From NCBI GenBank assembly GCA_021160245.1, contig JAGHCW010000197.1, forward strand, positions 1 to 12,641: 12,641 bases of DNA, written 5' to 3'. Shown in pieces: positions 1-12,641 of this stretch. Source of the stretch: a bacterium. GTDB taxonomy: Bacteria > B130-G9. The notes beneath the pieces were generated by a model that had not been told where the DNA came from, did not search any database, and worked only from the letters and a program-made list of their open reading frames with translations. Within the stretch, counting starts at the first letter, position 1. Each line of letters begins with the position of its first letter. Position numbers and translations under genes: made by a program.

Positions 1-219
1 GCGAGGCCATCTTGCCAGCCGGCGGACGGTCTCTTTGGCCGCAATCGCGACTAGCCATGACGGCTTTGACGCGGAGACCACCCGCGCTAAAGTCCTTATG
101 CGCCTCGAGGATAAGATACCCATAACAGCATATTAGCAGGAATTGCCGCATTGGGAATATAGAGATTGGTTCCTTGAATGATCACGCGCCCATCAGCCCC
201 TTCTGCATATTTTGTCCTA

Positions 220-246
220 TTGAAATGCAACCACATCCTGTATTAT
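220..246 (+). promoter_or_regulatory. Candidate sigma70-type promoter for the + strand operon
   Basis: TTGAAA at 220-225 and TATTAT at 241-246 are separated by a short 15-nt spacer. A second TATTAT lies at 255-260. This is the only AT-rich stretch upstream of the first gene. The call is by eye only, and spacing is shorter than the 17-nt optimum. Confidence 0.3.
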
Positions 247-292
247 CAATAGAGTATTATTGAATGGCGGTGGTTAAGACATCGAATGCGCG

Positions 293-1369
293 TTGAGAGG
301 AATGCAGGTGGAAACGCTTAGGGAGCAGATCGAGGAAAGAGAGGGTCAATTTCTCTGCGATAAGGCTATGCTGAGCCGTAACAGCCGAGGCCGAAAGCGA
401 GACGAGTCGGAATGCGACATTCGGACCTGTTTCCAGCGTGACAGGGACAGGATCATCCACAGCAAGTCGTTCAGGCGATTGATGCACAAGACCCAAGTAT
501 TCTTAAAGCCTCGAGATGACCATTACCGAACTAGGTTGACACACACGCTCGAGGTCGGTCAGATAGCGCGGACAATATCACGGGCGCTGCGACTGAACGA
601 GGACCTGGTTGAGGCGATTGCCATGGGTCACGATCTCGGTCACACGCCATTTGGACACTCGGGAGAGGCAGCGCTGCAAGAGGTTCATCCGGGGGGGTTT
701 GAGCATCCGGAGCAATCGCTGAGGGTTGTGGACTGTCTTGAGCGGCAGGGCAAAGGCCTGAACCTCACGTTTGAGGTTCGCGATGGAATCGTCAGGCACT
801 CAAAGGGCTTATCGGACCTTATCCCTAGTGACAAGAGCGGACTGCCTCGAACGCTTGAGGGTCAGATTGTTAGGATATCGGACATCATCGCTTACGTAAA
901 TCACGACATCGACGACGCCATACGTGCCGGACTTCTGACGCCGGAGTCCATCCCCAGTGAGCTCAGCTCCGTAATTGGAACAACTCACTCCGGGAGAATC
1001 GGCGTGATGGTCAATGATGTTATCCGGGCAACCTGGGACGTTGGAATGGAGTTCATCGCCATGAGCGGCAGAATATGTGAGGCAACGGAGCGGCTGCGCG
1101 CATTTCTGCATCGGGAGGTCTATAACAACCCAACGTCCGTTGAGCAGTTCGACAAGGCCAAGAGGCTTTTGAAGCGGCTTTATCAATACTACCTCGAGCA
1201 TTTGCATCTTGTGCCTACGCCACGATTTCAGCCCAAATCGGAGAATGCTAATCAGATTGTTTGCGACTATATAGCTGGGATGACGGACGGGTTTGCCATA
1301 TTGTGTTATGAGGATGTTTTTATACCGAGACCGTGGGCACGAGCGGAGGGCGGAGATGTTTATACCTGA
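293..1369 (+). CDS. dgt: dGTP triphosphohydrolase-like HD-domain phosphohydrolase (Dgt family)
   Basis: Shows the Dgt-family signature: FQRDRDRIIHSKSFRRLMHKTQVF, DHYRTRLTHTLEVGQIAR and the HD metal motif GHDLGHTPFGHSGE. The ORF opens with TTG at 293; ATG at 302 and GTG at 308 are alternative starts, and GAGG at 297-300 could serve as an RBS. The 3' end overlaps the next gene by 14 nt. Confidence 0.85.
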   Translation: MRGMQVETLREQIEEREGQFLCDKAMLSRNSRGRKRDESECDIRTCFQRDRDRIIHSKSFRRLMHKTQVFLKPRDDHYRTRLTHTLEVGQIARTISRALRLNEDLVEAIAMGHDLGHTPFGHSGEAALQEVHPGGFEHPEQSLRVVDCLERQGKGLNLTFEVRDGIVRHSKGLSDLIPSDKSGLPRTLEGQIVRISDIIAYVNHDIDDAIRAGLLTPESIPSELSSVIGTTHSGRIGVMVNDVIRATWDVGMEFIAMSGRICEATERLRAFLHREVYNNPTSVEQFDKAKRLLKRLYQYYLEHLHLVPTPRFQPKSENANQIVCDYIAGMTDGFAILCYEDVFIPRPWARAEGGDVYT

Positions 1370-2225
1370 GATTGACCTTCATCTTCATTCCAACGCCTCA
1401 GACGGGACCGAGACCCCTTCGGTTCTGGTTCGCATGGCGAGTGAGCTCGGGCTTGCGGCAATATCGCTCACCGACCATGACACCATTGAGGGCGTCGCTG
1501 AGGCCATGAGCGAGGGTGAGCGACTGGGCGTCGAGGTCATTCCCGGCATTGAGCTCAATTCCTTCTTCATGGGGCGTCCCGTTCATATTCTGGGCCTCCT
1601 TATTGACCCGGCGAGTGATTCCCTGAGAGATTTTGCGGCGAGGCGGCGCGAGGCGCGCCTCGTGAGGGCGAGGGAGATGATTCGAAGGCTTGCCGAGGCG
1701 GGGAAGCCAATCGATATGGACTTGGTGCTTAAGACAGCCGAGGGGGGCATAGTCGGCCGAGTGCATATCGCCCGTGCCCTTGTTCAGCGCGGCGCCGCTG
1801 CATCCGTGTCCGAGGCTTTCAAGAGCTACGTGAGACGAGGCTCGCCATACTATGTGTCGCTGGACAAACCGACCCCCGAGCAGGTGATCGCTGTGATACA
1901 AGATGCCGGGGGTATTGCCGCGCTTGCGCATCCGATCTTCATCCCAGATGATGTTCTGACTTCCCTGCTTCCGATCATCCTCAGCGCCGGCATCGGCGCG
2001 GTAGAGGTGCTTTGCGGCCTGAACAAGGACAAGGCTCAGGATATAGAAAAGCACTTGCAGCGGTGCTCGGAGATGTCTGCGTTTGCAGCGGAGCACAACC
2101 TTGCGCGATGCGGAGGCTCCGATTACCACGGGCTCTCGGTGAAGGGCATCCGGCTGGGTTCCGCTCATGTGCCAATTCAGTTTCTCGAGGAACTGAAGGA
2201 GAAGCACCGTGCGATGCAAGGATGA
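1356..2225 (+). CDS. PHP-family metal-dependent phosphoesterase, TrpH/YciV (RNase AM)-like 5'-3' exonuclease family
   Basis: PHP motifs IDLHLHSNASDG and ISLTDHDT are present, with later ALAHP and GGSDYHG metal ligands. ATG at 1356 is preceded by GGAGG at 1345-1349. The ORF-track start at 1293 would overlap dgt by 77 nt, so 1356 is preferred. The stop TGA at 2223-2225 overlaps the next ATG as ATGA. Confidence 0.8.
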   Translation: MFIPEIDLHLHSNASDGTETPSVLVRMASELGLAAISLTDHDTIEGVAEAMSEGERLGVEVIPGIELNSFFMGRPVHILGLLIDPASDSLRDFAARRREARLVRAREMIRRLAEAGKPIDMDLVLKTAEGGIVGRVHIARALVQRGAAASVSEAFKSYVRRGSPYYVSLDKPTPEQVIAVIQDAGGIAALAHPIFIPDDVLTSLLPIILSAGIGAVEVLCGLNKDKAQDIEKHLQRCSEMSAFAAEHNLARCGGSDYHGLSVKGIRLGSAHVPIQFLEELKEKHRAMQG

Positions 2226-3418
2226 CACCAGTTTCACAGAACCGCGATGGCGATACTGACATCTTGGATGGCTCGATGAACCACGAGCTTGAGGCCATTG
2301 TGGTCGGCGCGGGCCCGGCGGGAGGCATCTGCGCTCTTGAGCTCGCGTCCGCCGGAATCGATGTGGCTCTGCTCGAGAAAGAGGCCCTCCCGCGCTTTAA
2401 GCTATGCGCCGGTGGCTTCAGCGAGAGGGCACAAGATTTGCTGGGGCTGGATATCTCAGACGCCATCACAAACAAGGTCGAGGCGGTGGATTTCCTGGGC
2501 AAACATCGCTCTCGTCTCCGCAAGGATTCCACCAGCATCTTCGGCTCAATAGTCGACCGGAAACTCTTCGACGCGATCATTGTGGACGAGGCGCGCCTCG
2601 CTGGATGCGCCGTTTATGACGGTGCGGGGGCCCACTCGATTGAGCGTGAGGGTGGTTTATTCCGGGTGGCCACGCAAGACGGGCGCACGTTCACGAGCAA
2701 GGCCCTTGTGGGGGCGGACGGTTCCCGCTCAGTTGTCCGGCGCCATCTTGGCTTGCCTAATTTGAGGCGCCGAGGCGTAACCGTGATGTTTGAGCTCTTG
2801 CCTAATACGGATGTGAACCTTGAGAGCACAACGATCAAGCTCGATTTCGGCGTGGTTGATCACGGATATATGTGGATATTTCCGTTCGGCAAGGGCCTAT
2901 CTGTTGGAGCTGTAACCTCAAATAACTACTTGCCCGGCGCGAGGGCGAAGGTCTTGGAGTACATTGAGGACGACGAGGCGCTCTCATCGGGTTTCGATGT
3001 AAAATTTCTGGGTGGGTGTGTGGTTCCATATTGGACAGGCGAGCGTCGTGTCGGAGACGGGGGTTGCCTTCTTGCGGGCGATGCCGCCGGCCTTGTGGAC
3101 GCCTTCATGGGGGAGGGCTTGAGCTGGGCCATCTTGAGCGGTCGTATCGCGGCTGAAGCCATCATCACGCAGCGTGGGGCCGGGCGTGGGCCGCTTGGCC
3201 TACATGCGAGATACGCCACCGCGTTGAGACGCGAAGTCCTGCCCGAGCTGAGAAAGGCCTATTGGTTCGGGCGCCTCGCCTACAAGTATAAAGAGCCCAT
3301 TTTCAAACTCGTTTCGAGACTGAGCTTCGATGGTGATGTCTTCACTAAGATGACGAGGAGCAGGGTCTCCTATAGGGCACTCATCGCTCGAATGTTCAGG
3401 CAGTTGATCCGCTTTTAG
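2222..3418 (+). CDS. FAD-dependent oxidoreductase, geranylgeranyl reductase family
   Basis: Shows the Rossmann motif IVVGAGPAGG and the KLCAGG motif (GGR-type conserved Cys), plus GADGSRSVVRRHLG and GDAAGLVDAFMGEGLSWAILSG FAD-binding motifs. ATG at 2222 overlaps the upstream stop as ATGA. An alternative start at 2276 (MNHELEAIVVGAGPAGG) gives a more typical distance to the Rossmann motif. The ORF-track start at 2012 is rejected. Confidence 0.8.
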   Translation: MTPVSQNRDGDTDILDGSMNHELEAIVVGAGPAGGICALELASAGIDVALLEKEALPRFKLCAGGFSERAQDLLGLDISDAITNKVEAVDFLGKHRSRLRKDSTSIFGSIVDRKLFDAIIVDEARLAGCAVYDGAGAHSIEREGGLFRVATQDGRTFTSKALVGADGSRSVVRRHLGLPNLRRRGVTVMFELLPNTDVNLESTTIKLDFGVVDHGYMWIFPFGKGLSVGAVTSNNYLPGARAKVLEYIEDDEALSSGFDVKFLGGCVVPYWTGERRVGDGGCLLAGDAAGLVDAFMGEGLSWAILSGRIAAEAIITQRGAGRGPLGLHARYATALRREVLPELRKAYWFGRLAYKYKEPIFKLVSRLSFDGDVFTKMTRSRVSYRALIARMFRQLIRF

Positions 3419-3476
3419 AGATATACGCGCCGGCAGTTAATCGATCTGATGCTAAATCGACGGGGATAATGGTCGG

Positions 3477-5792
3477 ATGACAGGTCTCGGTCCATTCATT
3501 GAGAAGATGATGACCTCAAAAGAGGCCGAGCGATGTATCGCCGCGAGCTGTGAGATTGCAGGGAAGGCCGCCCGATATGTCTCAGTTGCGCCGCCTTTGC
3601 CGGACCCACTCCTCCGGGGCCTCTCTGCTATCGGGATTGAGAAGTTGTACTCCCACCAGGCGGCGGCTATTGAGTCGGTGCGTCAAGGCCGGGACATTGT
3701 CGTTGTAACTTCGACGGCCAGCGGCAAATCGCTTTGCTACAATTTACCTATTCTCGAATCGCTGCTTTTCGACCCTTCCGGCAAGGCCGTTCTCATGTTC
3801 CCGACCAAGGCGCTCTCTTATGACCAGCAGGCGGCGCTGCAAGGTCTGGTTGCATCGGAACCCGAGCTGTCTGGGCGGGTCGTGTCTGGGGTATATGATG
3901 GCGATACGCCGAGCCACGCGCGAAGGAAAGTGCGAGAGAGGGCCAACGTTCTCATCACAAACCCGGACATGCTTCATCAGGGCATTCTGCCACATCATTC
4001 TCGCTGGGCGGGCCTCTTCTCGGGACTTAGGTTCGTCGTTTTGGATGAACTGCACACCTATCGGGGCATCTTCGGCTCGAATGTCGCGAATGTTATTCGA
4101 AGGCTACAACGAATTTGTGAACAATACGGCGCCAAGCCTCAGTTTATTTGCTGTTCGGCAACGATCAACAATCCCAAAGAACTTGCATCGAGGCTTACGG
4201 GCCGTCCGGTTGACCTGATAGACGACGATGGCGCGCCGCAGAGCAAAAGGCATTTCATTATATGGAACGCGCCCCCCGTTGACGCTAACGGACTGATCAG
4301 GCCGACCCGGGCGGGTCAGGCGGAGCGGCTAATATCCGAACTAATGTCCGCTGATGTGCAGACAATCGCCTTCACAAGAACCCGTATGGGTGCTGAGATT
4401 CTCTCGAAGAACATAAAGGCTCGCCTTGAGAAGCAAAAGAGTCCCCTTGCGGACCGCGTTAAGCCCTATCGAGGAGGCTACCTAGCCGAGAAGAGGCGCA
4501 GGACTGAGTCGGACCTGATGAAGCGGAAGCTGCTCGCGGTCGTAAGTACCTCGGCACTTCAGCTTGGGGTTGACATAGGGTCGCTGCAAGGGTGCGTCAT
4601 AGTCGGTTACCCCGGCACCATAGCCGGAACATGGCAGCAGGCGGGGCGTGCCGGACGAAAGCAGGGCGCGTCTCTTGCGATACTCGTGGCGGGGGCAGAC
4701 CCAGTCGATCAATACATCGCCCAGAACCCCTCCTACATCTTCGACCGGAACCCGGAGGATGCCGTCATAGACCCGATGAATCCATACATTCTCACCCAGC
4801 ATATATGTTGTGCCGCTATGGAGAGACCACTTAGGGAGGAGGACGAGGCCTTCTTTGGCCCTATGTTCAGGTCGATTGTGAAACTCCTCTCGGACTGTCA
4901 GAAACTAAAACGTATCGGCGAGACCTGGTTCTGGTCAACTGATGAATACCCATCCGGGCAGGCCGGGCTTCGAACCGTGAGCGGCAAGAAACTCACAATA
5001 CAGGCTTGGGATATGACCCATTCCGGCGACGTGGTGGGCGAGATTGACGCCGCCAGCGTTCCGTTCATAGCGCATCCCGAGGCAGTCTATCTGCATGAGG
5101 GTGAGACGTTCCTTGTGGCACATGTCGATTATGGCAGAGGCATCGTGACGGTTCAGCAGGAAGATGTCGGATATTTCACGACGCCAGTTGTCAGCACGTC
5201 GATAGACCTTAAGGAAACATACGAAAAAAAAGAGCTGCGCGGCCTCACGATCGCCTGGACGTCGGTATCCGTGACGTCTCAGACGACAGGATACATGAGG
5301 CGCCGGTTCTCGACGTTTGAGAATCTCGGGACATACGAGGTCTCGCTTGAGCCCGTTATCCTTGACACTGTGGCGACCTACATTATGATCGATGAGAGCT
5401 TGAGGGATGCTCTTGCGCTTGAGAATCTGCCGGCGGTTGGTGGCATTGTGGGTTTGAAGAATCTACTCTCCGTTGTGGTTCCACTGATTGCTATGTGTGA
5501 CAGGCTCGACATCGGGATTGTGCTTGATTCCGAGAACTTGGGCGAGCAGGCTATCTTCGTATTCGACAGGTTTGACGGGGGACTGGGCTTCTCCGAGAGA
5601 GTTATGGACAGGATTGAGGAGGTTCTCGCGATGTGCCTCAAGGTGGTGTGTGGATGCCCCTGCAAGAGGGGGTGCCCATCCTGTGTCGGGATCGCGGACC
5701 CATCGACCGAGTCGCCTGTGCTTCCAGAAAGTATGCAGTCAAAAAGAAAGAGCGCCACGAGGAGATTGCTGGAGCTTGCGCTGGATGAATAG
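3477..5792 (+). CDS. Superfamily-2 DEAD/DEAH-box helicase with C-terminal DUF1998 (MrfA_Zn-binding) domain, MrfA/YprA family
   Basis: Walker A is TSTASGKS, motif II is VLDELH, motif VI is QQAGRAGR. The C-terminal CLKVVCGCPCKRGCPSCVG matches the CxCxxGCPxC Cys4 signature of DUF1998. ATG at 3477 has a weak GGGGAT RBS; an alternative start lies at the MMTSKEAE methionines. Confidence 0.9.
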   Translation: MTGLGPFIEKMMTSKEAERCIAASCEIAGKAARYVSVAPPLPDPLLRGLSAIGIEKLYSHQAAAIESVRQGRDIVVVTSTASGKSLCYNLPILESLLFDPSGKAVLMFPTKALSYDQQAALQGLVASEPELSGRVVSGVYDGDTPSHARRKVRERANVLITNPDMLHQGILPHHSRWAGLFSGLRFVVLDELHTYRGIFGSNVANVIRRLQRICEQYGAKPQFICCSATINNPKELASRLTGRPVDLIDDDGAPQSKRHFIIWNAPPVDANGLIRPTRAGQAERLISELMSADVQTIAFTRTRMGAEILSKNIKARLEKQKSPLADRVKPYRGGYLAEKRRRTESDLMKRKLLAVVSTSALQLGVDIGSLQGCVIVGYPGTIAGTWQQAGRAGRKQGASLAILVAGADPVDQYIAQNPSYIFDRNPEDAVIDPMNPYILTQHICCAAMERPLREEDEAFFGPMFRSIVKLLSDCQKLKRIGETWFWSTDEYPSGQAGLRTVSGKKLTIQAWDMTHSGDVVGEIDAASVPFIAHPEAVYLHEGETFLVAHVDYGRGIVTVQQEDVGYFTTPVVSTSIDLKETYEKKELRGLTIAWTSVSVTSQTTGYMRRRFSTFENLGTYEVSLEPVILDTVATYIMIDESLRDALALENLPAVGGIVGLKNLLSVVVPLIAMCDRLDIGIVLDSENLGEQAIFVFDRFDGGLGFSERVMDRIEEVLAMCLKVVCGCPCKRGCPSCVGIADPSTESPVLPESMQSKRKSATRRLLELALDE

Positions 5793-5796
5793 ATAG

Positions 5797-6360
5797 GTGA
5801 ACAAGTTGGATAGACCCACAAGTATCGGGCTCCTTGAGCTCAACAGCGTCGCCATTGGGATTAAAGCCTGCGACGTCATGCTAAAGGCGGCGTTTGTGAA
5901 GCTCTTGCGGGCTACCACAATCTGCCCCGGCAAATACGTGATCATGGTCTATGGCGGTGTGGACGCAGTCAGCGCCTCGGTCCGAGATGGCCGCGACGCT
6001 GGCGGGGAAAACGTCATCGATCACCTGATCATCCCGAATATCCACTCGTCCGTAATCCCGGCCATTGCTGCCGTAACCGAGGTTCAAGAGGTGGATGCGG
6101 TCGGCGTCATAGAGACCTTCTCGGCCGCATCCGCCATCGTCGCGGGGGACCTTGCGGCAAAAGCGGCGGACGTTCAGCTGATAGAGGTCAGGCTCGCAAA
6201 TGGCCTGGGCGGAAAGTCGTTCGTCGTTCTGACGGGTGATGTGTCGGCCGTTCAGGCTGCTATAGCTGCTGGTTCCGCCCATCCAAAGGAGCAGGGACTA
6301 TTCGTTCAAAGCGTCGTCATCCCGTCGCCTCACGAAGAGCTCAAGGATGCGCTGCTATAA
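5797..6360 (+). CDS. Bacterial microcompartment tandem-domain shell protein (BMC-T), PduT-like
   Basis: Two BMC domains are present: SIGLLELNSVAIGIKACDVMLKAAFVKLL...TTICPGKY and AVGVIETFSAASAIVAGDLAAKAADVQLIEV...GDVSAVQAAIAAGS...VVIPSPHEEL. These are collinear with PduT (AIGILELTSIA...KTICPGKF / AVGIVETWSVA...VIPRPHEAM). Cys43 (codon TGC at 5923-5925) aligns with the PduT Fe-S ligand Cys38. The start is GTG at 5797, 4 nt after the helicase stop; TTG at 5806 with AGGTGA 6 nt upstream is an alternative. Confidence 0.85.
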   Translation: MNKLDRPTSIGLLELNSVAIGIKACDVMLKAAFVKLLRATTICPGKYVIMVYGGVDAVSASVRDGRDAGGENVIDHLIIPNIHSSVIPAIAAVTEVQEVDAVGVIETFSAASAIVAGDLAAKAADVQLIEVRLANGLGGKSFVVLTGDVSAVQAAIAAGSAHPKEQGLFVQSVVIPSPHEELKDALL

Positions 6361-6361
6361 T

Positions 6362-6383
6362 CCAGATGCGTACGTTCATCTGG
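6362..6383. terminator. Possible bidirectional terminator hairpin between convergent genes
   Basis: A perfect 7-bp stem (CCAGATG at 6362-6368 and CATCTGG at 6377-6383) with an 8-nt loop lies immediately after the TAA stop of the BMC-T gene. It sits in the 80-nt gap before the convergent lipoprotein gene. There is no U-tract, so it is weak as an intrinsic terminator. Confidence 0.3.
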
Positions 6384-6440
6384 CCGGACAACTCGGATAG
6401 CTCGGCCGTCAGAAAACAACGCGATTTGCTGCTTCCGTGA

Positions 6441-7883
6441 TCAATCGGCGCCCGGCTGCTGCGCCTCAATGGTCTTCTGCTCGCCCGAGGCGTCTTGATA
6501 CGGCTCTATGCCCAGACCTTCCATGATCACCTCAATTAGGGCGATGGCTTTGTGTTCCAGCGGCAGCACTTCCTTGAGCACCTCGGCCTGCTTGTTGCGC
6601 ATTTCCTGTGTCCACGCCTCATAGTTAACGGTGAAAGGAGACGGGATGTTTTCCTCACCCTCCTTTAACAGCTCGACCTGCTGGGCGTAGATGTCGGCCA
6701 GCCGCAGGACACTTTCTCGCATGCAGCCAAACACGCCGGCGTATGTCTTCAAAAACTTGACCGCCTCCCCTCTGTCGGCTATGAAGCGCTGATATATCCA
6801 GTGGTTACCGAGTAATATGTTATCGTGTTCTTGTGTGGAGATAGAGGCGATTGAGGCCTCATTGCCGAGGAAATCTATCCAATGCTCAAGAGCGCTTGGC
6901 CCCGAATAATACGTGTCAAACTTCTTCGTTGTTCCCGCCTTGTAGGCTATCGCGAGCGATTGACGGACGGCCTCCTCGCCGGAGAGCGACTCGGATTTCT
7001 CCCCGAGGACCGCGGCCACCCACGGCGTCTTCTCAGCGATGTTGTAGTCATTCATCTCGCCATCAAAGCAGGAACGGCAGAAAAAGTCGCGCTTGCCGTT
7101 CTGGTAGCCGGTGATTATACCCCACTCGGGGACATATACGATGTCGATGCCGATAACGGGCAGGCCCCTGTCTATGCTCTTGATGATCTGCTGCCTCATC
7201 TCATCCTCGGTTAAGGCCTTCGGATCTACAGAATTCTCGCCTATCATCTCAAACCACTCTACTTCGCGCCCAAGCGCCTTAAGCAACTGCTTGGTGCAAT
7301 TGAGGCCCACACCGGGGTCCGGTGAGCTTGGGCATAGCTGCTCGTGAACTTGCAGTCTGAAGGCGCTGCCGGAGATGCCCATTAAGTAGTTGTAGTTGTG
7401 CTGCTCGCCGAAATGGGCCAGAACGCGCCTCGCACAAGCTATGAAGCTGCTTAGCTCGTTGCTCTCCATTGAGAGCGGCTCAATCCCCTCGATTATCTTC
7501 GCGTCCGGCATTCGATGGACCTTCGTCACTGTCTTGAGAGATACGCCGATCCTGCCGGGCGCAAGCGTGATGTCGATCTTCTCTTCGCCGCGTCGAATGA
7601 CAAGGCCGATGTCAGCCTTTCCGCCGGCGGCCTCGATGGCCGTGTGCAGGTCGAAGAGGCTTTCTATGGGCTTGCCGTCATACATAAGAATAACGTCGCC
7701 TGGCTTCAAGCCCTTGCTATCCGCCTGGCTTCTCGGGACCAATTGCTCGACCTCAATGTAACGCTCGACGGACTTCGGCGGCGCTGTGACCGCGGTCGTC
7801 TCCTGAACCTGATTACCTGCACAGCCCCAAAGAACCGCGACAGAAAGCAGCAATATGCAAAATAAACTCGCTTGCCTCATCAT
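6441..7883 (-). CDS. Secreted/lipoprotein with N-terminal PDZ domain and large uncharacterised C-terminal domain
   Basis: The signal peptide MMRQASLFCILLLSVAVLWGCAG has a possible lipobox Cys. A PDZ-like segment follows (GLKPGDVILMYDGKPIESLFDLHTAIEAAGGKADIGLVIRRGEEKIDITLAP). The ATG start has GAGGAG 7 nt upstream on the - strand. The roughly 330-aa C-terminal region has no family I can name from sequence alone. Confidence 0.7.
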   Translation of the reverse strand: MMRQASLFCILLLSVAVLWGCAGNQVQETTAVTAPPKSVERYIEVEQLVPRSQADSKGLKPGDVILMYDGKPIESLFDLHTAIEAAGGKADIGLVIRRGEEKIDITLAPGRIGVSLKTVTKVHRMPDAKIIEGIEPLSMESNELSSFIACARRVLAHFGEQHNYNYLMGISGSAFRLQVHEQLCPSSPDPGVGLNCTKQLLKALGREVEWFEMIGENSVDPKALTEDEMRQQIIKSIDRGLPVIGIDIVYVPEWGIITGYQNGKRDFFCRSCFDGEMNDYNIAEKTPWVAAVLGEKSESLSGEEAVRQSLAIAYKAGTTKKFDTYYSGPSALEHWIDFLGNEASIASISTQEHDNILLGNHWIYQRFIADRGEAVKFLKTYAGVFGCMRESVLRLADIYAQQVELLKEGEENIPSPFTVNYEAWTQEMRNKQAEVLKEVLPLEHKAIALIEVIMEGLGIEPYQDASGEQKTIEAQQPGAD

Positions 7884-8089
7884 TTTTCATCTCCTCAATG
7901 TTGAAAAAGGTATATAGATTGATGTCATCAACAGGGCTAAGACAGCCCTTTCAGGGGTGAGGGCCTCTCATGCCTCGTGATCCGTGGGTGGTACCCGCAG
8001 CTACTGTTGTTGTTCTCCTTCAGAGAACCTAAGGACATTCATAATACACAACCTATCTATCGAGCCAGGCACTGGCGCATTATCTCCAC

Positions 8090-8716
8090 TCACTGCGCTA
8101 GCGCTTGCGCAAACTGGTTTACAACCTCAAAATTGCGCCCGAAATCGAGAATAAGAAATCCTGAGACCGGTGTGCTGACGGCAGTGATCTCATGCGAACC
8201 ATTTTCCAGTTTATCTATCTTGAGCGTAACTCGGGATGCGTAGAAGGGCCTTGTGAACCCCTCAATACAGCCAACCTCTCGATCCACTACTCTCAACCTG
8301 ACGCCCAGGGACGAGACCGCCGAGAGAACATCGTCGAAGACCTGTTCAGGGCTGTGCTCCGGCCCGCGATGAACCACGCTGGATTGCGAGAGAAAAAGGG
8401 CTCTGCCATGAGGCGCGCCGTATTGCTTGCTCAGAGCGAGGCAGCGGTTCTTATCGTGCTTGACGACTGGCAATAAAATGGCCAGCGATATGATTGCGGA
8501 GACGAAACCGAATAGGATACCCATAACAACGACATCGCCAAATGAATATATGGGCAGCACCAGGGGATGGAGCGAGTCCTCCCGTATGATGTTTGGGCCG
8601 ACATAGAGCATGGCCACGATGACTCCTGCGCAGAAGAAGACGGAGACCGTAATCGTGATGCTCGCTACGAGTTTCGCGTATTGTCTCTTCATTCTGGTCT
8701 GAACGTGTGCTTTCAC
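8090..8716 (-). CDS. Small membrane protein with 2 TM helices and C-terminal soluble domain, unknown function
   Basis: Two hydrophobic helices are visible (ITITVSVFFCAGVIVAMLYV and VVVMGILFGFVSAIISLAILLPVV), followed by a roughly 120-aa soluble domain. The start is either GTG at 8716, overlapping the upstream stop as GTGA, or ATG at 8692. No clear Shine-Dalgarno precedes either, which fits translational coupling to the upstream FGE-domain gene. Confidence 0.6.
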   Translation of the reverse strand: MKAHVQTRMKRQYAKLVASITITVSVFFCAGVIVAMLYVGPNIIREDSLHPLVLPIYSFGDVVVMGILFGFVSAIISLAILLPVVKHDKNRCLALSKQYGAPHGRALFLSQSSVVHRGPEHSPEQVFDDVLSAVSSLGVRLRVVDREVGCIEGFTRPFYASRVTLKIDKLENGSHEITAVSTPVSGFLILDFGRNFEVVNQFAQALAQ

Positions 8717-9375
8717 TTGATCTCAATAGCCGGCGCTTTGCAGCAGCGAGCCCCATTGAAGACGTATCTGACAGATTTATCTAGCGTATAAGAGCTTCTG
8801 CAAGTCGAAAAACGGCCGCTAAGCCAACTTCCGCCGAAGATGACGGCGCTCTCCTTGTCGCTTGTCGTCCACTCTGAGACATTTCCGCTCATGTCGAAAA
8901 CGCCATAGCCACTAACGCAACCTGGAAACGTTCCCGACGGGAAGGCTTTGCTGCCGTTCATCATCCACTCCTGCTCCGTGTTGCAGGTCTCTGGAAAGTA
9001 GGAGACTCCATAAGGATAGGCGGTCTGTGCCGGGCCCTGGCACGCCGATTGCCATTCGCCGCCTGTGCAGAGCCTCTTGCCAGCCTTGAAGCAGAGCGAC
9101 TCGGCCTCGATCCAAGATATGTCGAGAATCGGCATCACTCCGATTTCATTGGGGTACTCGAAAAGATCGATGCAGAATGCCTCCTGCATCTCGCCGTCCC
9201 GGATTTTCATGGACGGAACAAGCGCCATGCCTGGGGGGCATATCAGCGATACTGTCGGAATGCGTTCCTCAAGAGTCTCGGGAGCATCCGGCGCAGCAGT
9301 TTCATCCTGTCCAAAGCCAATCATCGGTTGGCCGAAAAGGCATAGCGCGAAGCAGAATGCCAAAAAGCGTGTCAT
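8713..9375 (-). CDS. Secreted formylglycine-generating-enzyme (FGE-sulfatase/SUMF1) domain protein
   Basis: The N-terminal signal peptide is MTRFLAFCFALCLFGQPMIGFG. The hallmark FGE-sulfatase motif GVFDMSGNVSEWT is present, with flanking conserved Trp/Gly/Cys pattern and a C-terminal RCCKAP. A strong AGGAGG RBS sits about 9 nt upstream of the ATG on the - strand. Confidence 0.8.
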   Translation of the reverse strand: MTRFLAFCFALCLFGQPMIGFGQDETAAPDAPETLEERIPTVSLICPPGMALVPSMKIRDGEMQEAFCIDLFEYPNEIGVMPILDISWIEAESLCFKAGKRLCTGGEWQSACQGPAQTAYPYGVSYFPETCNTEQEWMMNGSKAFPSGTFPGCVSGYGVFDMSGNVSEWTTSDKESAVIFGGSWLSGRFSTCRSSYTLDKSVRYVFNGARCCKAPAIEIK

Positions 9376-9583
9376 GTTCGCATCCCTCCTAAGTACCGTT
9401 CTAATGTGCGCTTGAATGATTGTGAATCTAATCTCTTATATTGTGAGCTGCAAGCGCGATTACGTTACCCCCATAATCAGATTGACTGCAAAGAACATGT
9501 TGGAATAAGCGCGCTTCCTCGCTGTCCGGGGGAGTACGAGCTAAAAGGGGATCAGTCAGTGAGATGCACCAGCTGGGTGATTG

Positions 9584-9757
9584 TGGAGTGCGGAGGCTTG
9601 ACGCCGCTTTGGCTGGCCGCGGTTTGACGCGGCATCGACCTTATGTCAATTGGCGTCCGGGTCGAAAGATCGTTGTCTGAAAGGTCAAAAAGGCAATTCA
9701 TGAGAGAGTGGTGTCAAGCCACCACCAATCAAGGCGGAGTCAAGCCTCCGCACTCCA
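9584..9757. repeat. Symmetric TTGAC-core repeat element with 19-bp perfect inverted arms (MITE/REP-like or multi-site operator)
   Basis: The 19-bp arms at 9584-9602 (TGGAGTGCGGAGGCTTGAC) and 9739-9757 are exact reverse complements. Inner TTGAC and GTCAA units at 9624-9628 and 9713-9717 are each offset 26 bp from the outer ones. All four units are symmetric about the same centre near 9670.5. Two adjacent 6-bp-stem hairpins with identical TCAAGC loops lie at 9708-9725 and 9734-9751. Confidence 0.6.
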
Positions 9758-9826
9758 AAAAGCCACAGCCGCCTGCGTCAATCTGATTACTGGGGCGTTA
9801 CATTCGATAATCGATTAAGACAATGA

Positions 9827-10627
9827 CTATTTCGGCCGGAAGGTTATTGTTATGGTGCCCCATTCGACGTAGTCCTTGCCCTCCGGAAGAGATGCGAATC
9901 TCAGCGCGCGGACGTATTGGGCGGAGTAGTTGTCCAATGTGGCATCCAGTTTTCTCTCAAAGATAATTCTTGAGACCGCGCCGTCCGGCTGGACCCAGAA
10001 CTTAATGGCAACGCTCCCCGGAGTTGTGATCTCGACCTTGCTCTGCGGGGCCCTATAGACGATACTCCTTGCGGAAACGGGACCGGCAATGGCCTCAACG
10101 TTGACTGGGGACTTCCCCTTGGGGGCAGCGGAGCCTTTAGGCGCGGCGAAGTCCGGAAGACGGACACTCTCCTTTGGCTGAGCGGGCTGAAGCGACCATA
10201 AATTGTTTCGCTCCCTACCCGTGCGGCCAACGTCCCGGCTGGATGTCGCGAGCCTCGAAAGCGTCTTTTCGATCATCTCTGGCAGCCGCTTTTGAGGAAG
10301 GTCGAGCTCGTCCACTTCCAGGTTGTCATCTGCGGGAGCTGCCCGAGGACTGCGAATGAATGCGCCAAGCGGCAACTGCTGAGCGAAGGCGATTGTTGAG
10401 CTATCCAGCTCCGAGAGAAGCCTCGCCTCATCCTCTGAGGCGCCAAACGCCACCGCTTCGTAGCCCAACGCTCCATAGTCCAGCGGAAATAGGTCCACCT
10501 CGATCAGTTCTTCCATCGCTTTGTGCTTGGGAACAGCCGCCGGGACTGGGATAAGCAGAATGGCAAGCAAGTGAATGGCGACCGAGGCCAGGAGACCCCA
10601 GATGATGCAGTGTCTATCGGACGACAT
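9827..10627 (-). CDS. TonB C-terminal-domain membrane protein (energy transducer TonB family-like)
   Basis: The N-terminal TM helix is CIIWGLLASVAIHLLAILLIPVP, followed by a Pro/Ala-rich linker (AAPKGSAAPKGKSP). The C-terminal GSVAIKFWVQPDGAVSRIIFERKLDATLDNYSAQYVRALRFASLP fits the TonB_C pattern. ATG at 10627 is preferred; ATG at 10660 would overlap the upstream gene by 47 nt. The 14-nt overlap with the BMC-P gene and the absence of an SD both suggest coupling. Confidence 0.5.
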   Translation of the reverse strand: MSSDRHCIIWGLLASVAIHLLAILLIPVPAAVPKHKAMEELIEVDLFPLDYGALGYEAVAFGASEDEARLLSELDSSTIAFAQQLPLGAFIRSPRAAPADDNLEVDELDLPQKRLPEMIEKTLSRLATSSRDVGRTGRERNNLWSLQPAQPKESVRLPDFAAPKGSAAPKGKSPVNVEAIAGPVSARSIVYRAPQSKVEITTPGSVAIKFWVQPDGAVSRIIFERKLDATLDNYSAQYVRALRFASLPEGKDYVEWGTITITFRPK

Positions 10628-10880
10628 GGGTCTGGTCCACGATTCCGACGACGCACGCATCGACTGGAAGCTCGACGCCGAAGGGGTTACAAGCCTCTTT
10701 TCCAGAGACCCACAAGACGAACTCTGAGGCGCCCGCGCCGACCGAATCCAGCACGACTATTGGACTTCCGGCCGGCGTCCGATCGCTCCGCATAGGCTGC
10801 ATTAGCAGCAATCTCTTGCCGTTAAGTCGCTCGTCCTTGCGCGTCGCGACCACGTTCCCTATTATTTTGCCAAGCCTCAT
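10614..10880 (-). CDS. Bacterial microcompartment vertex protein (BMC-P, EutN/CcmL/PduN family)
   Basis: The 88-aa product MRLGKIIGNVVATRKDERLNGKRLLLMQ...VVLDSVGAGASEFVLWVSGKEA...VDACVVGIVDQTHVV is collinear with EutN (MKLAVVTGQIVCTV...AIDNIGAGTGEWVLLVSGSSAR...DLCVIGIVDEV). ATG at 10880 has a GGAGA RBS 8 nt upstream on the - strand. Confidence 0.8.
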   Translation of the reverse strand: MRLGKIIGNVVATRKDERLNGKRLLLMQPMRSDRTPAGSPIVVLDSVGAGASEFVLWVSGKEACNPFGVELPVDACVVGIVDQTHVVR

Positions 10881-11127
10881 GCCACGATTCTCCGTTTAAG
10901 GTCAGGGGGCTTTCTAGCCTGCCACACAATCCGAACAATCATCTGCGATACAATTGCCCGATTATACAATCAGACAACAATTGGCAGATTTGAAAGTCCG
11001 TCCAACGCCTTTCCGACTTGCGATTGAAAACACAGCCAGCTATGATTGCCCCTTGGGCAAGTAGTCTATAGCATAATCTCAGTCCTTGCTCAAATGATGA
11101 TTTCTAGACTACTGCAAGAGGGAGACC
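10881..11127. promoter_or_regulatory. Divergent control region between BMC-P/TonB-like operon (-) and AI-2E transporter (+) with ACAAT repeat array and a 9-bp inverted repeat
   Basis: Five ACAAT repeats sit at 10926, 10935, 10950, 10966 and 10977; they read ATTGT on the - strand. They flank a perfect - strand TATAAT at 10961-10966, about 80 nt upstream of the BMC-P ATG. The 9-bp inverted repeat AGTAGTCTA (11060-11068) and TAGACTACT (11104-11112) brackets a CATAAT -10-like hexamer at 11072-11077 just upstream of the transporter gene. An AGGGAG RBS lies at 11118-11123. Confidence 0.4.
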
Positions 11128-12399
11128 ATGGCAGCAAATAGCGGTCGCGGAAGGTCTGATCTTATCGCGAAGACCGCCATTGTGACGTTGAGCGTTGCGG
11201 GCGTTCTATGTGGGTTTTACATAATTTACGAGCTGCGTTCTCTCATCTACATGATGCTCTTCGCGTCTATTATTGCGTATGCTCTAAGCCCAATCGTCGG
11301 TCGAATGGAAGACGCGGGCATAAATCGCACGCTAGGCATAATCGTCATCACCACGCTGATAACTGGCGGCATTGTCGCCTTGCTGCTTTTTGTTATCCCC
11401 ACAATACTCAGGGAGATAGCGGAGTTCTTCCAGGGGTTTCCGACCTACTTCGAGCAAGGCCGTGCATTGCTTATATCCCTCTGGGAGAGGTTCTTTGGCG
11501 AGAGCTTCCCATCCAACGTCCAGTCGTTTCTGGATACTATCGCTCCCAGTTCGGCCACGCTGAAATCCATCGCATCAAAGGCCATCAAACCTCTCGGAAC
11601 GCTTCTTGCAGGGGCATTCACCGGCGTCGTTGGATTCATCGTATGGATTGTTGGGCTTGCAATTGCCCCGGTGGTGATATTCTATCTGTTGCGTGATTTT
11701 GAGCGAATTGTGGACGGCGCGGTCGCGCTAATTCCTGTCAGCCGAAAGGAAACTGTGGTGAGTTTATTCAAAGAGATCAATGAGACGCTGGGGAATTTAA
11801 TTCGAGGCCAGCTGCTGGTTGCGCTAATTCTCTCGATTTTCTACAGCGCGGGATTCTATTTTATCGGCGTTCCTTATGCAGTACTACTCGGCTTCATATC
11901 GGGCTCTGCAAACATCATCCCCTACTTCAGCCTCGTCGTCGGTCTAATCCCCGCCATTGTGGTCGCCTCCATTCACTTCGCAAACTGGGTTGAGCCGCTC
12001 TACGTGGTCCTTCTCTTCGCAGTGGTCCAGACGCTGGAGGGTTTTGTCTTAACCCCTAAGATAGTCGGGAAAAAGGTCGGCCTGCATCCGCTTCTGATCA
12101 TCCTCGCGCTCCTCGTCGGCGCCTCGTTGGGCGGCATAGTAGGTGTGCTCCTGGCCGTGCCAAGCGCGGCTGTGTTGAAGGTAGTCGTAACGCATTTCCA
12201 TCGGAAACTGAAGGGCAGAACTGAGCAGGAGGAGGCATCGGGATCATCCATTGATGGCGAGATCACGCAAGAGCAAAGCCCTGATGCGGCTCCGCACGTC
12301 GATTCAAAGACCTCGCCGGCAATTGAGGCTCAAAAAGATGGCGAAGAGGCCCAGCAGAATGATGAGCGACAGGGCAAGGACCCTTGCCAATCATCGTAG
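11128..12399 (+). CDS. AI-2E family transporter (UPF0118/PerM-type permease)
   Basis: The protein is polytopic, with about 8 hydrophobic helices. Its conserved C-terminal core (QTLEGFVLTPKIVGKKVGLHPLLIILALLVGASLGGIVGVLLAVP) is typical of the AI-2E_transport family. ATG at 11128 has a good RBS, and the C-terminal tail is acidic/Gln-rich and disordered. Confidence 0.85.
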   Translation: MAANSGRGRSDLIAKTAIVTLSVAGVLCGFYIIYELRSLIYMMLFASIIAYALSPIVGRMEDAGINRTLGIIVITTLITGGIVALLLFVIPTILREIAEFFQGFPTYFEQGRALLISLWERFFGESFPSNVQSFLDTIAPSSATLKSIASKAIKPLGTLLAGAFTGVVGFIVWIVGLAIAPVVIFYLLRDFERIVDGAVALIPVSRKETVVSLFKEINETLGNLIRGQLLVALILSIFYSAGFYFIGVPYAVLLGFISGSANIIPYFSLVVGLIPAIVVASIHFANWVEPLYVVLLFAVVQTLEGFVLTPKIVGKKVGLHPLLIILALLVGASLGGIVGVLLAVPSAAVLKVVVTHFHRKLKGRTEQEEASGSSIDGEITQEQSPDAAPHVDSKTSPAIEAQKDGEEAQQNDERQGKDPCQSS

Positions 12400-12641
12400 C
12401 GCGGATTGATCCCGGCTCGGCTGCGGACGGTCTAATACCCCCCGGCGCTGCGATAACAGTGGTCAACGACGAGCGCATTGACGACCCCATAGACTTCATG
12501 TTCGCCGCACAAGACTGCCAGCTGGACATCTCGTTTGTTGGCCCCGATAAAAGGCGCTGCTCAGCGCTGATACATCGGACCGCCGGGGAGCAGATCGGGC
12601 TCACATTCGAGCCAATCAAGCCCAAAATGTGCCCAAATAAC
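12384..12641 (+). CDS. 5' portion of a PDZ-domain / radical-SAM (DUF512-like) protein gene, truncated by window end
   Basis: An open frame runs from the in-frame stop at 12363-12365 to the window end. A TTG start at 12384 has AAGGA 6 nt upstream and overlaps the transporter gene by 16 nt. The translation IVARIDPGSAADGLIPPGAAITVVNDERIDDPIDFMFAAQDCQLDISFVG is a PDZ-like fold. The last residues, KMCPNN, look like the beginning of a CxxxCxxC radical-SAM cluster motif, as in PDZ-DUF512 proteins. It is not in the ORF track because there is no stop in the window. Confidence 0.5.
   Translation, partial: MPIIVARIDPGSAADGLIPPGAAITVVNDERIDDPIDFMFAAQDCQLDISFVGPDKRRCSALIHRTAGEQIGLTFEPIKPKMCPNN

Follow-up and report, generated by a model that had tools for sequence, protein, structure and literature searches.

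A probable 'YprA-only' repair helicase of the MrfA lineage within an inherited gene order of a Coatesbacteria-like bacterium

The domain architecture of MrfA, the YprA protein of Bacillus subtilis, was defined as NTR-RecA1-RecA2-WH-OB-CON-MZB by Roske et al. (PMC7797055). In an analysis of about 52,000 YprA-like proteins, Bell et al. 2025 described a repair branch, which holds MrfB-associated helicases as well as 'YprA only' helicases without conserved genomic context, and a separate defence branch with inserted domains, BrxA-like after RecA1 and zinc modules in the OB region (PMC12458937). MrfB itself degrades DNA as an exonuclease in the 3'-5' direction (Bell et al. 2025, PMC12458937), and Burby & Simmons reported MrfA to be the more widely conserved of the two proteins (10.1101/426304). 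Here we consider a helicase gene at positions 3477-5792 (+ strand) of a 12,641-nucleotide stretch of bacterial DNA (the entire contig JAGHCW010000197.1 of assembly GCA_021160245.1, positions 1 to 12,641), the whole of which is called the window below. An original prediction had assigned the gene product to the MrfA/YprA type and had proposed a PHP-family nuclease encoded two genes upstream as a substitute for MrfB, with a role in phage defence as an alternative. Our comparisons make it probable that the product is a bona fide repair-branch MrfA/YprA helicase of the 'YprA-only' kind, the neighbours of which reflect an inherited gene order. The PHP protein would then be a housekeeping enzyme, and the nuclease partner of the helicase would be encoded elsewhere or not be needed.

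The gene starts with ATG and encodes 771 amino acids followed by a stop codon. Against all PDB sequences, the top match of this MrfA/YprA-family superfamily 2 (SF2) DExH DNA helicase was B. subtilis YprA/MrfA (6znp), with 612 bits and an E value of 7e-183. A single alignment joins residues 37-739 to residues 37-732 of the 751-residue 6znp chain, with gaps of only 1-3 residues and no insertion of more than 3 residues. Because this match to a solved structure is full-length, with about 41% identity over the conserved columns, the fold of the helicase can be regarded as fixed, and the domain order of B. subtilis MrfA (6znp, 6znq, 6zns) is shared throughout. The next matches were Mycobacterium smegmatis Lhr (5v9x), with 80 bits over residues 61-314 only, and then Hel308 and RecQ-type cores. 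Four Pfam domains, all above their gathering scores, follow each other as in MrfA: DEAD (residues 59-235, positions 3651-4181, 108 bits), which corresponds to RecA1 and contains motifs I, Ia, Ib, II and III; Helicase_C (residues 284-395, positions 4326-4661, 40 bits), which corresponds to RecA2 and contains motifs IV, V and VI; WHD_HRQ1 (residues 431-499, positions 4767-4973), the winged-helix domain of the Hrq1/MrfA type; and the zinc-binding domain MZB, formerly DUF1998 (residues 661-737, positions 5457-5687, 60 bits).

The SF2 motifs are all intact, as originally predicted. Motif I reads TASGKS (residues 80-85, positions 3714-3731), motif Ia PTKAL, motif Ib TNPDML, motif II DELH (residues 190-193, positions 4044-4055) and motif III SAT (residues 227-229, positions 4155-4163); motif IV was located, motif V is TSALQLGVD (positions 4548-4574) and motif VI is QQAGRAGR (residues 387-394, positions 4635-4658). 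In an alignment of 100 relatives the key motif residues of the dual-RecA core are kept in 96-100 sequences, and Lys84, Asp190, Glu191, His193, Ser227 and Thr229 are the same residue in 99-100 of them. Arg499 in the linker between the WH and OB domains (within positions 4965-4985, after the winged-helix domain) is invariant in all 100 and aligns with the arginine of the SLR motif in B. subtilis MrfA. The C-terminal stretch CGCPCKRGCPSC contains five cysteines, Cys725, Cys727, Cys729, Cys733 and Cys736, and includes the predicted CxCxxGCPxC tetracysteine. The last four (positions 5655-5684, within the MZB domain) are spaced as CxCx3CxxC, are kept in 99 of the 100 relatives and correspond in the alignment to the zinc-binding residues of B. 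subtilis MrfA (CPCHDGCPSC), whereas Cys725 is an additional cysteine that is not conserved. In its DExH motifs and its zinc site of four cysteines the protein is identical in kind to B. subtilis MrfA. The differences are the additional Cys725, a tail that is about 30 residues longer, the lack of an adjacent mrfB (yprB) gene, and the source, an uncultured Coatesbacteria-like lineage.

Family models and phylogeny lead to the same assignment. The best NCBIfam model was the SftH-type TIGR03817 (DECH_helic), which scored 690 bits over residues 41-737 and did not reach its equivalog cut-off of 874. The helicase is of the same family as M. smegmatis SftH, but the actinobacterial secretion-locus neighbourhood is absent from the window. 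The NCBIfam Lhr-type models gave 56-135 bits, far under their cut-offs. The closest full-length helicases, of 59-66% identity, come from Candidatus Coatesbacteria metagenome-assembled genomes and from metagenomes, and the top hit in the GTDB species representatives has only 48% identity. An exact-sequence search with the helicase gave no match. A neighbour-joining tree of 100 sequences was built from the window helicase, nine Coatesbacteria helicases, those of 80 loci from other phyla, ten long paralogues and B. subtilis MrfA; the sequence PARA_L076, which was first used as root paralogue, was excluded since it is unrelated (17% identity). In this tree the window and Coatesbacteria helicases form one clade (100/100 bootstraps), which joins B. 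subtilis MrfA and one Cytophagia sequence (82/100 bootstraps). Both the full-length structural match and this grouping support the MrfA/YprA assignment, and the Lhr match is weak and restricted to the core. By these comparisons the helicase is assigned to the MrfA lineage and its repair branch, and neither to the Lhr nor to the defence clades.

Judged by its homologues MrfA of B. subtilis and SftH of M. smegmatis, the protein would be a monomeric, ATP-driven translocase and helicase moving 3'-to-5' on single-stranded DNA. The canopy formed by WH, OB, CON and MZB, together with the WH-OB linker and anchored by the four-cysteine zinc site, would close over the loading strand as in MrfA. A likely role would be excision-type repair of bulky adducts; a part in the repair of mitomycin C adducts is inferred only from homology to the described proteins (PMC7797055; 10.1101/426304).

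The helicase gene is the fourth of five consecutive genes on the + strand. The first is dgt (positions 293-1369), which encodes a dGTP triphosphohydrolase of the housekeeping type (NCBIfam NF002327, 513 bits against a cut-off of 393). It is followed by the gene of the PHP protein (positions 1356-2225, Pfam PHP), which does lie two genes upstream of the helicase as had been stated, by a gene for a flavoprotein of the geranylgeranyl-reductase family (positions 2222-3418; TIGR02032, 210 bits against a cut-off of 158.8), and, after a spacer of 58 nucleotides (positions 3419-3476), by the helicase ATG. The fifth gene (positions 5797-6360) encodes an orphan tandem-BMC shell protein (BMC-T) that resembles PduT (two Pfam BMC domains, 150 bits; TIGR02526, 137 bits, under its cut-off). 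The PHP start codon at position 1356 is preceded by GGAGG and overlaps the end of dgt by 14 nucleotides (1356-1369), and the likely reductase ATG at position 2222 overlaps the PHP stop codon as ATGA (2222-2225, 4 nucleotides). Both overlaps recur in relatives, with a 4-nucleotide overlap in L084 and L168. The spacer in front of the helicase varies in relatives from 5 to about 220 nucleotides and its sequence is not conserved. Because of these overlaps of 14 and 4 nucleotides against a variable spacer of 58 nucleotides in the window, the PHP gene is predicted to be translationally coupled to the dgt and reductase genes and not to the helicase gene.

The earlier description of these genes as one operon therefore stands in part: all five share the + strand and are not separated by any terminator-like site, but the helicase gene is set off by its spacer. 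Nine relatives were compared upstream of the helicase for a shared regulatory motif, for example an SOS box, and none was found; the spacers differ in both length and sequence. The spacer of the window contains a TCGAT-N10-ATCGA inverted repeat that is not conserved in relatives. In consensus-site scans the region was no richer in sites than shuffled sequence. The 3' part of the helicase gene contains one near-consensus sigma-70-like site about 410 nucleotides before the BMC-T start (positions 5362-5389, + strand; TTGACA, 16 nucleotides, TATGAT; 11 of 12 matches), and counts of such sites were not above those in shuffled sequence.

Some observations weigh against regarding the neighbours as no more than inherited. 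The order dgt-PHP-reductase-helicase is present in eight of nine distinct Coatesbacteria-type arrangements at helicase identities of 59-66% (the window, L081, L082, L084, L165/166, L168, L169/170 and L171, with L167 as the exception). Since this order is kept and no terminator-like site separates the genes, their co-transcription is possible. Further, the nearest helicases outside the lineage are mostly of the MrfAB type, from which it follows that the Coatesbacteria probably lost or moved an adjacent mrfB, and this leaves the question of the partner. One could therefore consider that the lineage descends from MrfAB-type ancestors, lost the adjacent MrfB and recruited either the TrpH-type PHP protein as a 5'-3' exonuclease or the orphan BMC-T protein as a new partner, which would give the excision pathway of MrfA a form not described before. 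We regard this as distinctly improbable.

Synteny within the lineage can be explained without a functional link. The order dgt-PHP-reductase-helicase was met only in Coatesbacteria-type contigs, and the conserved block reaches further upstream through genes for PIG-L, Ogt, MurJ, GGACT, Thi4 and two GT2 glycosyltransferases. The genes of this extended block, from PIG-L to GT2, are unconnected with DNA repair. Because the block extends to unrelated housekeeping genes, the synteny is best seen as general gene-order conservation in a narrow lineage. The exceptional arrangement L167, in which the helicase has 62% identity, carries uvrB, a HEPN/nucleotidyltransferase pair resembling a toxin-antitoxin system, uvrC and an open reading frame of 66 amino acids upstream of the helicase (positions 4203-12313), and it retains the BMC and PDZ protein genes downstream. 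Its homology to the close relative L169 begins about 65 nucleotides upstream of the helicase ATG, a length that the two spacers share, and this places the breakpoint between the reductase gene and the helicase gene. With uvrB and uvrC, L167 links the helicase physically to nucleotide-excision-repair genes; this is consistent with a repair role but is a single case.

Outside the lineage two surveys were made. The helicase survey covered 80 loci from many phyla, with helicases of 40-48% identity and up to 8 kb of flank, and the PHP survey covered 80 loci from metagenomes, each around a TrpH-type PHP homologue of 33-43% identity. Homologues of the TrpH-type PHP, dgt, reductase and BMC genes were found by tblastn in none of the 80 helicase loci, in the case of dgt, reductase and BMC even at an E value of 1e-2. 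Conversely, a profile search found a MrfA-like gene in none of the 80 PHP loci, and dgt was found in none of them either. The unusual trio of a dNTP hydrolase (dgt), a TrpH-type PHP protein and a flavoprotein of the isoprenoid-reductase family likewise occurred in none of these 80 PHP loci of other phyla.

The same helicase loci provide a positive control. An MrfB-like RNase_H_2/DEDDh gene was detected by tblastn on the helicase strand in 35 of the 80 loci, directly downstream of the helicase in 19 and upstream in 16, where mrfB is usually followed by the long MrfA paralogue and then mrfA. Since tblastn detects MrfB-like genes in 35 of 80 loci and TrpH-type PHP genes in none, a true partner leaves a strong signal in such a survey and the PHP gene leaves none. 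When an MrfB-like protein was compared with the window by tblastn, all matches had E values above 1 (best 1.2), which bears out the earlier statement that no DnaQ-like gene is adjacent, and an MrfB-like gene was also not found at the helicase locus of the Coatesbacteria-type contigs (tblastn, with Pfam tables for the later contigs). As the closest relatives outside the lineage are mostly MrfAB-type, mrfB would have been lost or relocated within it.

Two further observations came from these loci. A PHP profile run over the 80 helicase loci matched a distant PHP gene, with 23-38 bits, only in four related Clostridia loci (L026, L027, L041 and L079), where its Pfam scores are 23-31 bits. This gene lies about 3 kb upstream of the helicase (for example at positions 3891-4754 of L027) and is parted from it by SipL/LysM sporulation genes, in L027 also by a peptidoglycan-binding gene; as a link between PHP and helicase it was judged coincidental and rejected. 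In loci of Planctomycetota, Armatimonadota, Lentisphaerota and Victivallales a three-gene string of mrfB, a long mrfA paralogue and mrfA is found, as in L037 (positions 3832-4890, 4918-7956 and 7983-10433). The long MrfA-like paralogue has about 930-1000 amino acids and all four Pfam domains, forms a clade of its own (100/100 bootstraps) and occurs in L031, L033, L036, L037, L053, L057, L069, L071, L074, L077 and others.

The PHP protein, of 289 amino acids, is classified by sequence similarity as a phosphoesterase of the TrpH/RNase AM/Cv1693 type. Its best PDB matches were Escherichia coli RNase AM (7ug9, 129 bits), 3e0f, 9etk and Chromobacterium violaceum Cv1693 (2yb1, 116 bits). With RNase AM (YciV/TrpH) and Cv1693 it has in common a single PHP domain, a length of about 290 residues and the metal-binding residues, and the ligands His9, His11, Asp16, His41, Glu66, His77, His192, Asp256 and His258 are invariant in 20 homologues. 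It differs from both in falling under the NCBIfam equivalog cut-offs (pAp phosphatase 178 bits against 400; RNase RNM 161 bits against 375) and in a Coatesbacteria-specific insertion of about 9 residues. This insertion (alignment columns about 236-244) is shared by the Coatesbacteria-type PHP proteins and absent from the other 15 aligned TrpH-type homologues.

Could this protein replace MrfB by degrading the strand displaced by the helicase? Several features make the proposal understandable. An MrfB-like gene is missing from the window and from every Coatesbacteria-type contig, the probable loss or movement of the partner is suggested by the MrfAB-type relatives, and the PHP gene stands on the same strand as the helicase gene in eight of the nine distinct arrangements. 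The metal site is intact, and TrpH-family enzymes are exonucleases, 7ug9 being labelled '5'-3' exoribonuclease' and RNase AM maturing the 5' ends of rRNA (PMC7261194). However, the coupling of the PHP gene is to the dgt and reductase genes, an unrelated reductase gene intervenes before the helicase, the linkage is broken in L167, and an association was seen neither in the 80 helicase loci nor in the 80 PHP loci. The characterised PHP relatives act 5'-to-3' on RNA or act on pAp; their polarity is opposite to that of the 3'-5' DNA exonuclease MrfB and their substrates are different. MrfB is a DnaQ-like DEDDh exonuclease (PF13482), to which the PHP protein is unrelated in fold as well as polarity. 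TrpH-type homologues of about 40% identity are moreover spread over many phyla, so that the presence of one says little. A non-orthologous replacement of MrfB by the PHP protein is for these reasons distinctly improbable. Instead, the PHP protein would be a housekeeping phosphoesterase acting on nucleotides or oligoribonucleotides and translationally coupled to dgt. The related expectation, that it is a housekeeping trpH found with dgt independently of the helicase, agrees with the data in that TrpH-type genes are widespread where the helicase is absent, but not in that they generally stand beside dgt.

The BMC-T gene is the most constant neighbour of the helicase. It starts 4 nucleotides past the helicase stop codon in the window and follows the helicase gene in all seven Coatesbacteria-type arrangements with downstream sequence, including L167 where the upstream block differs (L081, positions 12366-12893; L167, 12407-12964; L168, 13923-14489; L084, about 6817-7365; L169, 7045-7602; L171, 10001-10558). 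With 71-81% identity among relatives the BMC-T protein is better conserved than the helicase, and it retains the cysteine of the TICPGKY motif, which we take to be the Fe-S ligand of PduT. Genes for BMC-H, BMC-P or signature enzymes were not found within 10 kb of it. The short gap, the constancy, the conservation and the lack of other microcompartment genes could be read as signs of a functional pair of helicase and shell protein. Such a pairing is nevertheless very improbable, as no biochemical connection of shell proteins with DNA helicases is known or plausible, a BMC gene stands beside the helicase in none of the 80 loci from other phyla, and the nearest homologue outside the lineage (L173, 58% identity) belongs to a normal microcompartment locus that also encodes PduL, an aldehyde dehydrogenase, RpiB and DeoC. 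The two genes are also parted by restriction-modification insertions in two relatives, L168 (positions 11845-13849) and L084 (positions 5799-6716): both insertions hold a gene for a Dam-like methyltransferase of the D12 class, and that in L168 also one for a SacI-like restriction endonuclease. The helicase/BMC-T junction appears to tolerate insertions. Satellite shell genes are common, and the BMC-T gene is most likely one of these.

Compared to the 'YprA only' helicases described before (PMC12458937), the window helicase agrees in being stand-alone, in having no partner that is conserved across phyla and in lacking the insertions of the defence clades. It differs in that, in its own lineage, it occupies a fixed slot between the dgt-PHP-reductase triad and the BMC-T gene. 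We attribute this slot to inherited synteny; dgt, PHP, reductase and BMC-T genes would reflect the gene order of the Coatesbacteria lineage and not a functional module.

The least credible option is that the helicase is the core of an anti-phage system resembling DISARM, Druantia or ARMADA: although an SF2 core and a DUF1998-type zinc module are shared with DISARM DrmA/DrmB and Druantia DruE, and although small defence-type modules occur near the helicase in relatives (the Dam-like methyltransferase and SacI-like endonuclease in L168, the HEPN/nucleotidyltransferase pair in L167), the PADLOC matches are weak and partial, the repair-type MrfA match is about 5-fold stronger and full-length, the insertions that mark the defence clades (PMC12458937) are missing, and the helicase holds a fixed chromosomal position amid housekeeping genes in all relatives. 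The PADLOC matches of the full protein are confined to the helicase core and do not exceed 125 bits (BrxHI 125, DruE 116, DrmA at most 73, and also DpdF), and the C-terminal 171 residues gave DruE with 32 bits and no match to DrmB at E<=1. Partner genes of DISARM, namely the DrmC phospholipase D (PLD)-type nuclease, the DrmMI/II methyltransferases and the SNF2 protein DrmD, were not found by Pfam among the 10 proteins of the window, and the window lacks the restriction-modification genes that are inserted in L084 and L168. The only PADLOC match among the neighbours of the helicase was the dGTPase, and the dgt product scored 195 bits against the anti-phage dGTPase model, which has a cut-off of 400.

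The remainder of the window, downstream of the BMC-T gene, is mostly on the - strand and encodes a PDZ protein, a hypothetical membrane protein, a protein with an FGE-sulfatase domain and a TonB_C-like protein, with a gene for an AI-2E transporter (+ strand) as the last. Among the - strand genes at positions 6441-9375, that of the PDZ protein (480 amino acids, with an N-terminal signal or lipoprotein-like sequence) adjoins the BMC-T gene in several relatives, and that of the membrane protein (208 amino acids, without family match) overlaps the FGE-sulfatase-domain gene by 4 nucleotides. The tRNA and Rfam scans found neither tRNA genes nor Rfam families in the window.

If the PHP protein were after all the partner of the helicase, the MrfA pathway would gain a nuclease of a new class, and this would help to explain how the 'YprA-only' group, which is large and unexplained, completes excision. 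The preferred reading, that of a 'YprA-only' repair helicase among inherited neighbours, would add a Coatesbacteria-like candidate phylum to the many lineages in which a repair helicase of the MrfA type stands alone, which matters little beyond annotation. The locus would also offer a worked negative example, in which a gene order conserved in one narrow lineage does not amount to a functional module.

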